From the NCBI GenBank assembly GCA_965214095.1, contig OZ243938.1:3328001-3392000 (forward strand): a DNA stretch of 64,000 nt, given 5' to 3'. This document shows positions 30,813-36,320 of this stretch, piece after piece. The notes beneath the pieces are model-generated. The model saw only the letters and a program-made list of their open reading frames with translations. It was not told where the DNA came from and did no database searches. The position numbers and the translations under genes are program-made. This DNA is from Candidatus Poribacteria bacterium. GTDB lineage: Bacteria; Poribacteria; WGA-4E; WGA-3G. The first letter of the stretch is position 1, and every line of letters begins with the position of its first letter.

Positions 30813-33800
30813 ATGATTGAGGTTAATATTTTGGAATTTGTTCATCTACACAATCACAGTGAATATAGCATGCTTGATAGTGCGTGTCGTATACCCGATA
30901 TGATTCAGTGGACAGTTGAGAATAGTGCGCCGGCTGTTGCCCTCACCGACCATGGTAATATGTTCGGTGCATGGGATTTTTACACAACTGCAAAACAGGC
31001 TGGGATCAACCCTATTGTCGGGTGTGAGGTGTATGTTGCTCCAAGACACCGAAAAAAACAGCCGAAGAATCCAAAGAATTTATACCATCTAACATTGCTT
31101 GCCGAAGATGTGTCAGGCTATCACAATCTGATAAAGTTGGTATCTCTTGGTTACATTGAGGGTTTCTGTGAGAAGCCGTGTATTGATTTGGAAATGTTGC
31201 GTGAGCACCGGGACGGCATTATTGCTCTGACGGGTTGTATTCAGGGACAAATACCACAACTCCTCTGTTCAAATAGACAGATGGCAGCTGCTCAGCATTT
31301 TAAGACGTTTGTTGATATTATGTCTCCGCGGAATATTTACGTTGAGATCCAGAATCATTATACGGATAAGGAACTGAAAACATATCCGATGCTGGTTGAT
31401 TTAGCGCGCGAATTTGAAATACCGCTCGTTGCGACGAACAATTGCCATTACTTATCTAAATCCGACTACCGTATATGGCAAATACTTCTTTGTATCCAAA
31501 AAAAGAAAAGCATCAATGCTCCCGATAGGATACGGCGTGGGAATCACTATTATTTTAAAAGTAGAGATGAAATGCAAGTTGCATTCAGGAATTACCCGCC
31601 TGAAGCGATCAGCAACACTCTTCAAATTGCCCAAAGGTGTCAGCTGAATCTGGATTACGGCAAGAGTGTGATGCCGAATTACGAGGTGCCTGATGGATAC
31701 ACTGATGACAGCTACCTCAAGGAGTTGTGCTACAAAGGGTTGCAAGAGAAGATGGGTGGAGAACTCACATCAGCTGTGCGAACGCGTTTGGATTATGAGC
31801 TTGAAACAATTCGCAAAACAGGATATGCCGGTTATTTTTTGATTGTGTGGGACTACATTGACTACGCAAACAAACAAGGATACCCACTTTCCACAAGGGG
31901 ATCCGCTGCAAGCAGCCTTGCCCTTTACGCACTCGGTGTAAATTCTTTCAATCCAATGGACCACGGTTGCATGTTTGAAAGGTTTTTGAACACTGAGCGA
32001 ATTAGTCCGCCTGATATTGATATAGATTTTGCTGATCGCATTCGGGACGATGTTATTAATTATCTTGTCAAAAAATATGGTCATGACTCTGTGGGTAAAG
32101 TTGCGACCTTTTCAACGATGGGTGCAAAGGTTGCTATCACGGATGTCGGGAAAGTTTTAGATATACCGATAGAAAACCTGAAAAAGTTGACAAGATTGGT
32201 GAATCACCTGCCTGAACTTACCGTTCAGAATATTGTAAGACATGCCCCCAGTTTTAAGAAGTTAGTGAAATGTCCTGAATATAAAGAATTAATAGCCGTC
32301 AGTAGAGAACTTGTGGGATTGAAAAGGCATGTATCGTCACACGCTTCTGCCATCGTTGTTTCAAATGGGTCGCTTAGCAATTATATGCCACTCTTTACAG
32401 ATAAACATGGTCAAGTTGTGACACAGTTTGAAGGTAAAACTGTTGAAGATGTTGGCATCGTCAAATTTGATTCACTCGGTTTGAGAAGCCTGACAAAGAC
32501 CGATGATTGTGTGAAAATGGTTAAATCCAACAGAGGTAAGGCAATAAAATTAGAAGATATTCCTTTTGATGATGCACAGACCTATCAACTCGTTGGTAAA
32601 GGTTTAATCTCCGGTTTGTTCCAACTGGAAACTTCCGATGGTATGCGGCGGCTTGTAACAGAACTGAAAGCAGAGACCTTTCAGGATTTCTGTGCAATTG
32701 CTGCAATTTACCGTCCCGGCCCGCTGCTCAGCGGTACAACGCAGCGATTTATCAACCGTAAAAATGGAAGGGAACAGGTTAAATCTGTACACCCGCTGCT
32801 TAAGGAAACACTAAAAGACACGTACGGATTGTGTATTTACCAAGAACATGTGATGCAGATTGCCCGTGATATTGCGGGGTACACGCTCGGTGAAGCGGAT
32901 GTTCTACGATATGCCATGGGACGCGTGAATAAACAACTTTTGAAAGATCAACGACAGAAGTTTCTTTCAGGTGCAATAAAGAACGGCATTTCCGATAAAG
33001 AGGCTGAAACTATCTTTGACATGATAGAACCCTTTGGTGGATACGCCTTCAATAAATCACACTCTGTTGCTTATGCTATAGTTACTTATAGGATGGCATA
33101 TCTAAAGGCGCATTACCCGCACGAATTTATGGCGGCGATTATGACAAGTGAGGCTGATTATACTCCCAGACTTATCGGCTATCGTGACGAATGTAGACAT
33201 TTGGCAAGGCATTTGGGTGTAGATATTAATTTACTTCCGCCAGACATCAATGTCAGTGATAAGTATTTTACGGTAAATGGCAATGCTATAAACTTCGGAC
33301 TCATTGTTATCAAAAATGTTGGTGGAAAAGCGATAGATGCGATCATAGCAGAACGAGAGGCAGGAGGCGTGTTCAGATCGCTACAAGATTTTTGCGAACG
33401 CGTGGATACGAGAGTTGTTAATATACGTGTAATTGAGAGTCTTATCTTATGTGGAGCTTTTGATCGCATTGATGCACATAGAGCAAAACTGGTCGCTAAC
33501 TTAGAAAAGATCATCAAAGTTTCCAGAGCAGTGAGAGCGTCACTGGCACGCGGGCAGCTAAGCCTCTTTCAGATAGACATTCCGCTTACGGATACGCCTG
33601 AATATGAACCGTTGGAACGATTCAAATATGAAAAGGATCTTCTCGGTTTTTATGTATCAGGTCACCCACTGACTGAATATGAGGACATTATCAAATACTT
33701 TACAACTGCCAATTCTCAAACGGTTCACGAACATAAACTTGATTCTATAGTGTCTATAGTTGGGATGGTAAAGAGCGGGAGAGTGAAGCACACAAAATCA

Positions 33801-34094
33801 AGTGGCACAACACTTCAACTTAAGATAGAAGACCTTGAAGGGTATGTAGAGGTATTTGCGCGTCAAGAGGTATTAGAAAAAGGGATGTCGGTTGAGAAGG
33901 GACAATTTGTTTGGATTGAGGGCAAAATCAGAAATATGCCGCGTGGTAGTAAGGGCAAAACAACAACAGAAAAACGGATATACGCAAGTAGGATTATGGA
34001 TATCACTGCTGTTACCGAGAATTTGACATCTGCGGTAGAGGTGAAAATAGCGGAGTCTGACATCAACAACCTGCAGAAACTGAAGGTTGAGTAA
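30813..34094 (+). CDS. dnaE: DNA polymerase III alpha subunit (divergent), C-terminally truncated by an IS607 insertion
   Basis: PHP HLHNHSEYS, ALTDHG; RGSAA; PDIDIDF; KFD; YAFNKSHS; clamp motif QLSLF; OB fold. The final VE and stop come from the IS. Confidence 0.95.
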   Translation: MIEVNILEFVHLHNHSEYSMLDSACRIPDMIQWTVENSAPAVALTDHGNMFGAWDFYTTAKQAGINPIVGCEVYVAPRHRKKQPKNPKNLYHLTLLAEDVSGYHNLIKLVSLGYIEGFCEKPCIDLEMLREHRDGIIALTGCIQGQIPQLLCSNRQMAAAQHFKTFVDIMSPRNIYVEIQNHYTDKELKTYPMLVDLAREFEIPLVATNNCHYLSKSDYRIWQILLCIQKKKSINAPDRIRRGNHYYFKSRDEMQVAFRNYPPEAISNTLQIAQRCQLNLDYGKSVMPNYEVPDGYTDDSYLKELCYKGLQEKMGGELTSAVRTRLDYELETIRKTGYAGYFLIVWDYIDYANKQGYPLSTRGSAASSLALYALGVNSFNPMDHGCMFERFLNTERISPPDIDIDFADRIRDDVINYLVKKYGHDSVGKVATFSTMGAKVAITDVGKVLDIPIENLKKLTRLVNHLPELTVQNIVRHAPSFKKLVKCPEYKELIAVSRELVGLKRHVSSHASAIVVSNGSLSNYMPLFTDKHGQVVTQFEGKTVEDVGIVKFDSLGLRSLTKTDDCVKMVKSNRGKAIKLEDIPFDDAQTYQLVGKGLISGLFQLETSDGMRRLVTELKAETFQDFCAIAAIYRPGPLLSGTTQRFINRKNGREQVKSVHPLLKETLKDTYGLCIYQEHVMQIARDIAGYTLGEADVLRYAMGRVNKQLLKDQRQKFLSGAIKNGISDKEAETIFDMIEPFGGYAFNKSHSVAYAIVTYRMAYLKAHYPHEFMAAIMTSEADYTPRLIGYRDECRHLARHLGVDINLLPPDINVSDKYFTVNGNAINFGLIVIKNVGGKAIDAIIAEREAGGVFRSLQDFCERVDTRVVNIRVIESLILCGAFDRIDAHRAKLVANLEKIIKVSRAVRASLARGQLSLFQIDIPLTDTPEYEPLERFKYEKDLLGFYVSGHPLTEYEDIIKYFTTANSQTVHEHKLDSIVSIVGMVKSGRVKHTKSSGTTLQLKIEDLEGYVEVFARQEVLEKGMSVEKGQFVWIEGKIRNMPRGSKGKTTTEKRIYASRIMDITAVTENLTSAVEVKIAESDINNLQKLKVE

Positions 34095-34153
34095 CAGTAT
34101 CTAAATATCTATATTTTTCTTGATATTTCTCTGGATTTATAGTATACTATTAT

Positions 34154-34741
34154 ATGGCTTATGTATCAGCACGTAAAGCAAGTGAACTGCTGGATTATAC
34201 CCCCGACCATTTAAGGAAGTTGGCAAATGAAGGAAAGATTGAATATATCCGCACAGGAGGCGGACACAGACGCTATGATGTTGAAGGATACATCAAAAGC
34301 AAATCCCAATCAATTGCAACTGTTTGCTACTGCAGAGTATCCAGCACGAAGCAAAGAGATGATCTTGAACGACAAGTTGAATATATGCGAAGCATCTACC
34401 CCTCAGCAGAAGTTATCAGAGACATCGGAAGTGGTATCAACTTCAAAAGGAAAGGGCTTAGAACCTTATTGGAACGGCTTATGCAAGGTGATAAGCTCCA
34501 AGTTGTTATTGCCCATCGGGATAGGCTCGCCCGATTCGGTATCGACCTTATACAATACCTCATTGAACAAAACGGTGGCGAACTCGTGGTTCTCGATCAA
34601 ACAGAACACAGTCCGCAAGAAGAACTCACTGCGGATCTTCTCGCAATCCTGCATGTCTTCAGTAGCCGGATGCACGGGCTCCGAAGTTACCGTGACAAAA
34701 TCAAAGAAGATAAGAGTTTATCCGACAACAGAACAACGTGA
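34154..34741 (+). CDS. tnpA: IS607 serine-recombinase transposase TnpA
   Basis: N-terminal MerR-like HTH (RTGGGHRRY), YCRVSS, DLERQ, DIGSGINFKRKGL, HRDRLARFG. Confidence 0.96.
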   Translation: MAYVSARKASELLDYTPDHLRKLANEGKIEYIRTGGGHRRYDVEGYIKSKSQSIATVCYCRVSSTKQRDDLERQVEYMRSIYPSAEVIRDIGSGINFKRKGLRTLLERLMQGDKLQVVIAHRDRLARFGIDLIQYLIEQNGGELVVLDQTEHSPQEELTADLLAILHVFSSRMHGLRSYRDKIKEDKSLSDNRTT

Positions 34742-35809
34742 AACACTGCGTCAGTGGTTTGGCACAGCACGTTTTACCTACAACAAAACGGTTGTTTTGT
34801 TGAACGAAACAGACACAAAGGCACATTGGAAAGCGATAAAAACAGGCATTCTTCACGATCTACCTGATTGGAGCAAAGAAACGCCGTATCAGATAAAGTC
34901 TATTGCTATCCGTGATGCTTGTATTGCTGTTAGAGAAGCGAAGCAAAAATGTCAAAAAACAGGTAAGTTTCAATCTGTGTCTTTCAAATCTAAACGGCAT
35001 CCCTCAGATAGTATTTTCATGCCAAAATCTGCTATAAAACCACGCGGTGTCTATCACACCTTACTTGGTGATCTAAAGATGTCAGAAATGTTGCCTGATA
35101 ATATCTCTGACTCCCGACTTGTGAAAAAGAATGACAAATACTATTTATGTGTATCTTATACTGTGACAACTCCGAAGCGAAAGCCAAACGGACGTGTTGT
35201 TGCTTTAGACCCTGGCGTGAGAACATTCCTCACATATTTTCATGAGCGTGGTTTCGGATGGCTTGGACACCATGCTATTAATCGGATTCAAAGACTTTGT
35301 TCATATCTCGATGACCTATTATCTCGTGCAGCTAAAGCAGGTAGACAATCACGCAAGAATATGAGACGTGCTGCAAACAGAATACGCACACGTATAAAAA
35401 ATCTTGTAGATGAATTGCATCATAAAGTCGCACGATACCTTGTGGATACCTTTGATATTATCTTACTCCCAACGTTTGAGACTTCAGATATGGTAATGCG
35501 TGGAAAACGAAAACTACGAAAGAGGTCTGTCCGACAAATGTTGACACTCTCTCACTACAGATTCAAACAGTTCCTAAAACATAAAGCGAAAGAAACTGGA
35601 TCTATCGTCGTTGATGTCTGTGAAGCATACACATCAAAACAGTTTCTTGGAATGGTGAGATGAGAAAATCACTCGGCGGACGCAAGATAATCAAAGATAG
35701 CATAGGACGCAAGATGAACAGAGACTTGAATGGCGCACGTGGGATATTCCTGCGTGCTTTGGTAGATGAACCCTGGTTACTCTCTATGAGTAACTTGCAA
35801 ACCGTATAA
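34227..35809 (+). pseudogene. tnpB: IS607 TnpB RNA-guided nuclease (Fanzor2-like), frameshifted near 35636-35639
   Basis: KIRVYPT, ARFTYN, ALDPGVRTF, DELHHK, CEAYTSK. RuvC-III (MNRDLNGARGIFLR) lies in the -1 frame and ends at TAA 35807-35809. The true start is uncertain. Confidence 0.88.
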
Positions 35810-35858
35810 GATGTGAAATACATAGTATCGCACGGATATATACAGGTTAATATCATCG

Positions 35859-36068
35859 GCTTTACAGGATATTGCACTTACTAACAGTGGGGACCTCCAT
35901 TTAATCCTGCGACTCGCGAGTCCGCGTTATGGTGATGTGATTGTACGGTGTGGTATGGCATATAAGATCGCTAATGATGATACTGTTTTTAAACAGGTGA
36001 ACAAACTGTTTGGAGAGAATAGCATTAAACGTAGCAATCGCACGCAACGTTTTAGGCGGAATCCGTAG
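35859..36068 (+). pseudogene. dnaE: Detached C-terminal 69 codons of dnaE
   Basis: Translates ALQDIALTNSGDLHLILRLASPRYGDVIVRCG...FKQVNKLFGENSIK...NP*. It is in frame with upstream dnaE after IS excision and resembles the alpha-subunit C-terminal domain. Confidence 0.85.
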
Positions 36069-36243
36069 GTGTTGTCTGAACCAGGATTTTCAGGATTAGA
36101 GTTTGGTTCTGTGAAGTCCCTATCTAAAACTCGACCACTATCTTTTGAATGACATTTATAATACCATTATAACCCTGCTCTATCCACAGGGTTATTTAGT
36201 TTTAATAATTTTCAATCGATGAACGTTACTAAGAGTTTATATC

Positions 36244-36320
36244 GTAGGTCGGGTAGAGCGTTAGCGAAACCCGACACGTTCAATGCTTGTCGGGTTTCGC
36301 TAACGCTCTACCCGACCTAC
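36244..36320. repeat. GTAG-REP doublet (REPIN-like)
   Basis: gtaggtcgggtagagcgttagcgaaacccgac plus its perfect inverted copy. A related doublet lies at 52893-52973. Confidence 0.85.

Follow-up and report, generated by a model that had tools for sequence, protein, structure and literature searches.

A pro-Fanzor-type TnpB whose N-terminal domain is probably overprinted on the transposase gene of an IS607-type insertion sequence in Candidatus Poribacteria

The window analysed here is a 64,000-nucleotide stretch of the chromosome of a sponge-symbiont Candidatus Poribacteria bacterium (assembly GCA_965214095.1, contig OZ243938.1, positions 3,328,001 to 3,392,000 of the forward strand), and coordinates given without a contig name are positions in this window. 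It contains an IS607-type insertion sequence (IS) at 34087..35859 that is 1773 bp here and 1773–1775 bp in other copies, and which carries a transposase gene, tnpA, and a gene for a putative RNA-guided nuclease, tnpB. The element and all of the window features described below are on the forward (+) strand. The tnpA gene (34154..34741) encodes a serine recombinase of 195 aa with a MerR-type helix-turn-helix (HTH) and a resolvase catalytic domain. The catalytic domain matched Pfam PF00239 (E 7.7e-20, residues 57–179), and residues 5–42 gave weak MerR/HTH_17 matches that were below the Pfam cut-off. The long tnpB frame (34227..35663) encodes 478 aa in the window, where it is cut by a frameshift, and 527 aa in intact copies. 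It begins 73 nt inside tnpA, in frame +1, and the 515 nt shared by the two genes (34227–34741) are open throughout. An initial annotation, made from the sequence alone, had described a tnpB frame open across 515 nt of tnpA, and the positions of the two open reading frames (ORFs) agree with that description. The peptides it had quoted, STSKGKGLEPYWNGLC, SKLLLP, NSWFS, VVALDPG, IILLPTF and VCEAYTSK, are all present in the ORF.

The overprinted part of TnpB includes two segments of different character. Residues 1–79 (34227..34463), overprinted on tnpA codons 25–104, make up a Ser/Thr/Lys-rich arm that is predicted to be disordered. Residues 80–153 (34464..34685), overprinted on the tnpA catalytic domain, make up an N-terminal domain (NTD) that contains PYW, SKLLLP and KTVxNSWF motifs. 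No Pfam family was found for ORF residues 1–142. The Pfam core domains of canonical TnpBs are present and start at ORF residue 157 (PF12323, E 3e-12; PF01385, E 1.1e-8), and PF07282 scored 26.4 bits against a cut-off of 26.3. An in-frame GTG (MTKSKKIRVYPT..., 34692..34694) corresponds to the start of the canonical TnpB core, and two annotated relatives, P0019 and P0078, begin there.

When the window's own genome was searched, five copies of the element that are 93–98% identical were found. Alignment of the copies with their flanks placed the element ends at 34087 (TTGAGTAACAG...) and 35859 (...TTAATATCATCGG), where identity between the copies stops, and the right end runs to ...ATCATCGG. The left and right flanks of the five copies differ. 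The right end has TCGG in all five copies and in 32/32 relatives, and the left flank terminates in GG in four copies and in AG in one. Terminal inverted repeats were sought at the element ends and none were found, only a 75% subterminal pair. In run X5, which is another study's data from another population, contigs join 34084 to 35858 and skip exactly 1773 bases, representing the empty site. Contigs of runs X1 and X4 bridge both element junctions at flank depth, with all copies collapsed there. The five copies and the empty site in another population show that the element is mobile and polymorphic. With its serine-recombinase TnpA with a MerR-type HTH, GG ends, lack of terminal inverted repeats and mobility as a unit, it belongs to the IS607 family. 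The tnpB gene is whole (527 aa) in the four sister copies; in one of these, c3, tnpA is broken. The element is ordinary for an IS607 member, but a functional-looking nuclease domain that is overprinted on a transposase gene across very distant hosts is not.

When protein sequences were searched with the entire 478-aa ORF, 3072 matches were obtained. Most of the best 120 of these are proteins of 500–560 aa that cover 92–99% of the query, with identities down to 51%. Fifteen of the 120 are short-form or odd-length calls and were excluded, leaving 105 sequences in the family alignment. Eighty loci were kept from genome contigs; 26 are from Poribacteria, one is labelled Aeromonas and the rest are cyanobacteria by title. 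At all 80, tnpA overlaps the TnpB match, always in frame +1, and 77 have at least 506 open tnpB codons. Among these loci, 31 remained after dereplication with tnpA intact, and in none of them does the tnpB frame contain a stop over the overlap. When tnpA was shuffled among synonymous codons, a mean of 2.9–7.2 stops was expected in the tnpB frame, which was open in 0–2% of 2000 shuffles per locus (median 0.1%). The third frame served as a control and was in line with its shuffles, containing 5–16 stops with 10–16 expected. An ATG is found in a kept place, 67–76 nt into tnpA and after an AGGA-like stretch, in 24 of the 31.

Conservation across the overlap also argues for a second frame. In 26 loci, identity at tnpA wobble positions was 0.45 in codons 1–24, ahead of the overlap, 0.48 where the disordered arm is encoded, and 0.56–0.68 in the rest (codons 56–195). 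Position-wise identities for tnpB were obtained from 47 of the 80 loci, or 32 after dereplication, and the wobble baseline outside the overlap was 0.40, compared with 0.57 at tnpB second positions within it. Eighteen loci have in-frame stops in tnpA. The tnpB frame is open across the overlap in 17 of these and has at least 506 codons in 16, with copies from one genome counted separately, as these 18 were not dereplicated. At the protein level, W82, L93, P96, S120 and W121 are invariant in the 105 sequences, at about 52% overall identity, and K62, K76, P80, Y81, C86, S91, L94, L95, T116, V117 and F122 are at least 90% conserved. Both frames are open beyond chance in diverged homologues and there is excess synonymous constraint on tnpA; the open frame is not a chance occurrence, and the dual coding is very probably real. 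In the literature searched, which did not extend to supplements or subscription journals, no description of a dual-coded NTD was found.

The overlap extends to viruses. A viral search, made with an alignment of relatives that bear a zinc finger (see below) and have long Lys-rich N-termini, yielded 77 viral-contig loci, many of them on contigs that carry GVMAG in their names or extend over hundreds of kilobases. A tnpA match was found at 60 of the 77 and none at 17, and at two it was on the opposite strand. At 54 of the 77, GVMAG contigs included, tnpA and the nuclease ORF share more than 150 nt on the same strand, and the overlap is in frame +1 every time. Twelve viral loci (seven GVMAG and five other) were examined, and all have zero stops over the tnpA match; PxW and SW[FY] motifs, where found, fall within the overlapped span. 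Named phages carry relatives covering residues 29–523. As stops are avoided, tnpA wobble positions are constrained, the frame survives without tnpA and the start is conserved, we conclude that the second frame is under selection, and that selection maintains both frames across Poribacteria, cyanobacteria, phages and giant-virus contigs. The initial annotation had proposed that stops in the overlapping frame of close homologues would speak against its reading; instead, the frame is open at 77/80 bacterial loci and overlapping at 54/77 viral loci.

Annotation of the phage loci is partial. In Vibrio phage F100 (L180), only a short 'transposase' is called, in Microcoleus phage My-WqHQDG (L181), only a 561-aa 'hypothetical protein', and tnpA is unannotated in both. 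Six further viral contigs (L092, L123, L136, L138, L161 and L162) have Fanzor2-like ORFs with long N-termini and DPG at codon 299–346. In these six, tnpA was undetected in any frame, and the N-terminal domain may have outlived the transposase.

The active site was compared with that of ApmFz2, the mimivirus Fanzor2 (PDB 9B0L). The RuvC-I DPG noted initially is D328-P329-G330 (35208..35216; VVALDPGVR), which is invariant in the 105 sequences and aligns with the IDPG of ApmFz2. An invariant P415 occupies what we take to be the place of the canonical RuvC-II Glu, as is consistent with the earlier claim that this Glu had been replaced by another in VCEAYTSK. This alternative Glu, E466 of the intact protein (35622..35624), is invariant in the 105 sequences and aligns with ApmFz2 E467, which has been reported as the catalytic Glu (PMC11832414). 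D328, E466 and D500 correspond to ApmFz2 D324, E467 and D501, and the catalytic residues are invariant or nearly so in the family alignment, which shows a putative RuvC triad of D328, relocated E466 and D500. A near-invariant E418 (PTFET; codon 35478–35480), three residues after the canonical Glu place held by the invariant Pro, could also matter for catalysis.

V473, six residues past E466, sits opposite ApmFz2 C474. In the intact copy, V, N, a gap and T stand in for the four zinc-finger Cys of ApmFz2 (C474, C477, C491 and C494), so the cysteines are missing, as had been claimed, and SWxGE is invariant in the 105 sequences. DPG is present in 125 of the best 150 of 7173 representatives, and the first finger position is occupied by CxxC in 57 and by the SW-type replacement in 48, though this classing by regular expression is crude and at least P0190 and P0211 were wrongly scored finger-less. 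In a FastTree tree of 127 of the 150, the query clade was made up of 70 finger-less rows and one finger-bearing row (Shimodaira–Hasegawa-like, SH-like, support 98). The SWF motif is found in 30 finger-bearing and 44 finger-less rows, and the finger-bearing representatives have P[YF]WN, L[WL]LP and NSWF in common, with W121 invariant there too. Loss of the zinc finger in large TnpB branches has already been noted in general terms (PMC10691335), and the alignments here show an apparent loss of the Cys throughout a whole clade.

A second tree placed the query in a Poribacteria clade (support 100) beside cyanobacterial elements and within the finger-less clade (95). In that tree, the DPG group was separated from four of six canonical TnpBs of the same genome (SH-like 99), and the other two fell inside it on a very long branch (3.1), probably as a result of long-branch attraction. 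As rooting on canonical TnpBs is imperfect, no order of events was drawn from the tree. In a PDB sequence search, 9B0L was matched with E 6e-26, compared with 1e-5 to 1e-6 for TnpB and Cas12f. Thus, in the comparison that the initial annotation had suggested, the protein groups with Fanzor2 and not with canonical TnpB, and the tree agrees. The genome also contains 17 matches to canonical OrfB_IS605 TnpBs of several families, with open frames of 176–421 aa, and is rich in RNA-guided nuclease elements.

Like pro-Fanzors, the protein has the DPG and lacks the canonical Glu, with an alternative Glu placed six residues ahead of the first position of the finger; the CxxC...CxxC zinc finger of the pro-Fanzor search pattern is missing. 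The closest loci are titled Candidatus Poribacteria, and cyanobacteria come next in distance, so the host is not one of the cyanobacteria in which pro-Fanzors were defined. DPG and P415 stand where a canonical TnpB would have D-hydrophobic-G and the RuvC-II Glu, and the gene is on a bacterial chromosome and not, like that of a Fanzor2, encoded by a eukaryote or a eukaryotic virus. The finger-less forms appear from these trees to be a large derived clade beside the finger-bearing ones, which would make the element a cousin of Fanzor2 and not a shown ancestor. A zinc-finger-less pro-Fanzor near Fanzor2, as first proposed, is therefore upheld in its DPG, relocated Glu and missing finger, but not in direct ancestry, as it lies beside the finger-bearing forms and not on a line that leads straight to Fanzor2. 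Among the clade traits named in that proposal, DPG and the relocated Glu fit the definition of pro-Fanzors in PMC10711439; PxWN, LxLP and SWF are absent from the main text of that paper, yet are present in our alignments.

The structure of the intact 527-aa copy was modelled with AlphaFold2 from the 105-sequence alignment, without templates. The mean predicted local distance difference test score (pLDDT) was 72, and the core (residues 154–520, among them 161–410) was mostly at 80–94. Within residues 80–153, a helix (84–92) and strands (109–115 and 123–129) were predicted. The top PDB match returned by Foldseek was mimivirus Fanzor2 9b0l_P (E 1.8e-22). Aligned to this chain with VIA-align, model residues 78–517 matched residues 53–518 (413 residues, Z 26.9, root-mean-square deviation 3.7), while the alignment to ISDra2 TnpB 8h1j comprised 336 residues (Z 25.8) from model residue 154. 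Alignments to ISDra2 TnpB, ISFba1 TnpB and Cas12f chains all start at model residues 151–156. The part of the model that precedes them, residues 78–153, matches chain residues 53–130 of 9b0l_P, which are the Fanzor2 NTD (RuvC-R and thumb). When the family profile was compared with the 9B0L sequence (E 1.1e-34), the alignment opened at KSWFST, opposite ApmFz2 N82-S83-W84. Residues 53–130 of ApmFz2 have been described as an NTD unique among TnpB structures, in which RuvC-R (65–91) completes the RuvC fold, N82 and S83 touch the omega-RNA pseudoknot and a basic 'thumb' (109–130) clasps target DNA (PMC11832414). The domain predicted for the overprinted residues ~80–153 is that of the mimivirus Fanzor2 NTD.

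A structured RNA with five helices, a candidate omega RNA or right-end scaffold, lies at 35733..35848 and spans the last tnpB codons and the stop. In ten Poribacteria sequences it has 32 pairs with 99.1% of cells paired, and nine of the pairs have compensatory changes. None of 500 shuffles scored as high, and slid controls were 33–48% paired. The hairpin at 35735–35757 covaries at tnpB wobble positions across cyanobacteria too. A mixed alignment of Poribacteria and cyanobacteria gave 13 pairs only, with the variable 3' part misaligned by MAFFT, and the Poribacteria-only set was used. These results show a covarying RNA structure at the right end. By analogy with ISXfa1 (PMC10711439), the RNA should extend into the flank and the target-adjacent motif (TAM) should be a G-ending purine motif to the left of the element. 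An Rfam scan found no family for the element, and its sole match was a chance microRNA outside it (E 0.69). Two solo 104-nt stretches without genes, L006 and L007 (C1:1573353-1573456 and 3164014-3164117), are 82–83% identical to window positions 35754–35859, and may be orphan right ends or guide-RNA remnants.

Taken together, it is likely that this is an IS607-family IS with a pro-Fanzor-type TnpB, an RNA-guided nuclease, and that the +1 frame of tnpA supplies the coding sequence for the first ~155 residues of this nuclease. The long form would be translated from the conserved ATG 34227, after the AGGA-like stretch. If ApmFz2 is a guide, the NTD would pack on RuvC, its invariant SW motif would contact the omega-RNA pseudoknot, and the segment downstream of that motif would clasp target DNA. 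An omega RNA that spans the 3' end of tnpB and extends into the flank would guide cleavage of the empty site beside a purine-rich, G-ending motif, and such guided cleavage would restore the element after its excision at GG by TnpA.

Several points weigh against this reading. Residues 1–60 are poorly conserved (amino-acid identity 0.31–0.44), residues 1–79 are predicted to be disordered (pLDDT 26–33), and the model of the NTD is only middling, with block pLDDT of 51–74 over residues 81–160. Some pipelines annotate a short form of 372–386 aa from GTG 34692, and translation of the long form from ATG 34227 is a prediction made by analogy. In the viral loci the shuffle test is weak when applied to a single locus, with open fractions of 0.004–0.64. 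The window copy is broken as assembled, though its four sister copies are intact. Finally, the TAM and homing steps, with the guide and the cleavage, are proposed by analogy.

The extent of the protein could be explained in two other ways. If the upstream frame is open but untranslated, TnpB would be made from GTG 34692 or ATG 34653 as a protein of ~372–385 aa, from a gene that overlaps tnpA by 50–90 nt. This would fit with Pfam domains that open at ORF residue 157, with the predicted disorder of residues 1–79, and with the short forms annotated by several sources (P0019, P0078 and the 'transposase' of Vibrio phage F100). However, stop avoidance in 31/31 loci relative to shuffles, the greater conservation of tnpA wobble sites, the invariance of W82, L93, P96, S120 and W121 at about 52% identity, retention of the frame in 17/18 loci with a broken tnpA and the match of the predicted NTD to that of ApmFz2 all argue for an upstream frame that is translated, and we consider exclusive production of the short form quite unlikely. 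Alternatively, a TnpA-TnpB fusion might be produced, starting at the tnpA ATG 34154 with an early +1 shift rather than by initiation at 34227. IS elements often use frameshifting, and the tnpB frame opens about 60 nt past the tnpA start in most loci. However, in nearly all loci an ATG lies within a few codons of where the frame opens (67–76 nt into tnpA in 24/31), and a conserved slippery motif was not seen, albeit without a systematic search, making a fusion unlikely. Initiation within tnpA remains our preferred explanation.

The frameshift in the window copy is due to a run of four A residues (A4, 35636..35639) where each of the four sister copies has five (A5); the missing base puts the last 56 tnpB codons one base back. 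The C-terminal part of TnpB (35639..35809), with the finger-less TNB region (TVSWNGE...) and RuvC-III, can be read in that frame as TVSWNGEMRKSLGG...NRDLNGARGIF, from 35639 to the TAA at 35807–35809. The Asp codon of the RuvC-III motif NRDLNGARGIF is at 35723–35725. This part matches PF07282 positions 30–60 (E 0.045) and differs at one residue from the end of P0001 (527 aa). It could be that A4 is a true deletion and that tnpB is dead in this copy, with only tnpA and the RNA acting, which is compatible with the reading of the family given above. The assembly reads A4, the extra A was present in just 27 of 73 depth units at the site in run X5, and the broken tnpA of copy c3 shows that decay occurs. 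On the other hand, homopolymer errors are common in long-read assemblies, and every X1 and X4 contig over the site reads A5; as all five copies are collapsed in those contigs, they cannot decide between A4 and A5. The deletion may be an assembly error, and we give a dead tnpB in this copy slightly less than an even chance. A further possibility is that TnpB is regulated at the run, through programmed -1 frameshifting or slippage during transcription, as tRNA-Lys might re-pair with A AAA after moving back by one base. Four A residues make a short tract for slippage, and with A5 the frame is intact in four of the five copies and in all relatives. Programmed frameshifting here was rejected on these grounds, and regulation of this kind is very improbable.

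With TnpB read as a long form that starts within tnpA, the most likely origin of the NTD is de novo, by overprinting of the ancient resolvase domain. More broadly, we favour, with moderate confidence, the view that the NTD that distinguishes Fanzor2 and pro-Fanzors from every other TnpB was born de novo by overprinting of the TnpA catalytic domain and has been dual-coded from bacteria via phages to giant viruses. As the NTD is overprinted and dual-coded, the transposase and the nuclease would be physically inseparable and would co-evolve codon by codon.

The element sits in the bacterial chromosome with dnaE on one side and cytochrome b/Rieske genes on the other. It splits dnaE (30813..34094), the final two codons and stop of which are now supplied by the left end of the element, and the orphaned last 68 dnaE codons (35862..36068) are in frame past the right end. 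The dnaE paralogue at C1:2647458-2650937, the second in the genome (60% identity), reads straight into the homologous intact tail. The tail stretch at 35862..36068 is presumed to be the guide-matching flank. A 28-nt repeat at 36071–36099, with ~35 exact or near-exact genomic copies on both strands, looks like a REP (repetitive extragenic palindrome) or MITE (miniature inverted-repeat transposable element). In the RNA run X15 nothing was found on the element, and the only matches were to repeats at 36072–36277.

If true, the de novo origin would provide a clear case, in the lineage from which eukaryotes acquired Fanzor nucleases, of a working nucleic-acid-binding domain born within a different gene. 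Gene callers retain one of two overlapping frames, so some pro-Fanzors may be listed without their N-terminus in catalogues of compact nucleases, and constructs made from such entries may fail. As the published pro-Fanzor pattern demands a zinc finger, it has missed a large finger-less clade that reaches beyond cyanobacteria to sponge symbionts and phages. The overlap links the transposase with the nuclease and may explain their stable association.

In the overprinted genes of compact viruses, a new frame arises within an older gene and encodes a partly disordered product. Here, in contrast, the overprint is in a bacterial insertion sequence and has persisted in bacteria, phages and giant-virus contigs, and what the newer frame encodes is a nuclease domain predicted to contact nucleic acids. 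The pro-Fanzors, which are cyanobacterial IS607 TnpBs, have the same DPG, the same Glu six residues before the finger position and an IS607 TnpA partner, and include close cyanobacterial relatives of the element, but their search pattern requires a C4 zinc finger that is lacking here (PMC10711439). The main text of that paper, as distinct from its supplements, does not mention an N-terminal domain, an extension or a tnpA overlap. ApmFz2 (PDB 9B0L, PMC11832414) is the best match in both sequence and fold, and has in common the D/E/D arrangement, the NTD ahead of the WED strand and the SW motif. It differs in keeping the four finger Cys, has an N-terminal nuclear localization signal, shares about 22% identity, and is viral/eukaryotic where the present protein is bacterial. 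Canonical IS607 elements, such as IS607 of H. pylori and ISXfa1, have been described with the same serine-recombinase TnpA, GG ends, lack of terminal inverted repeats, lack of visible target duplication and right-end guide RNA (PMC3673617, PMC10711439, PMC13565253). The TnpBs described there carry both the canonical Glu and a zinc finger but lack an NTD. In one of these papers, IS607 is said in a general way to have 'two overlapping open reading frames' (PMC3673617), which is a generic overlap and not a dual-coded domain of 515 nt. ISDra2 TnpB (8H1J, 8EXA) shares the WED/REC/RuvC core, but it contains a zinc finger together with the canonical Glu and has no counterpart of the 153 residues that precede that core in the Poribacteria protein (residues 1–153).

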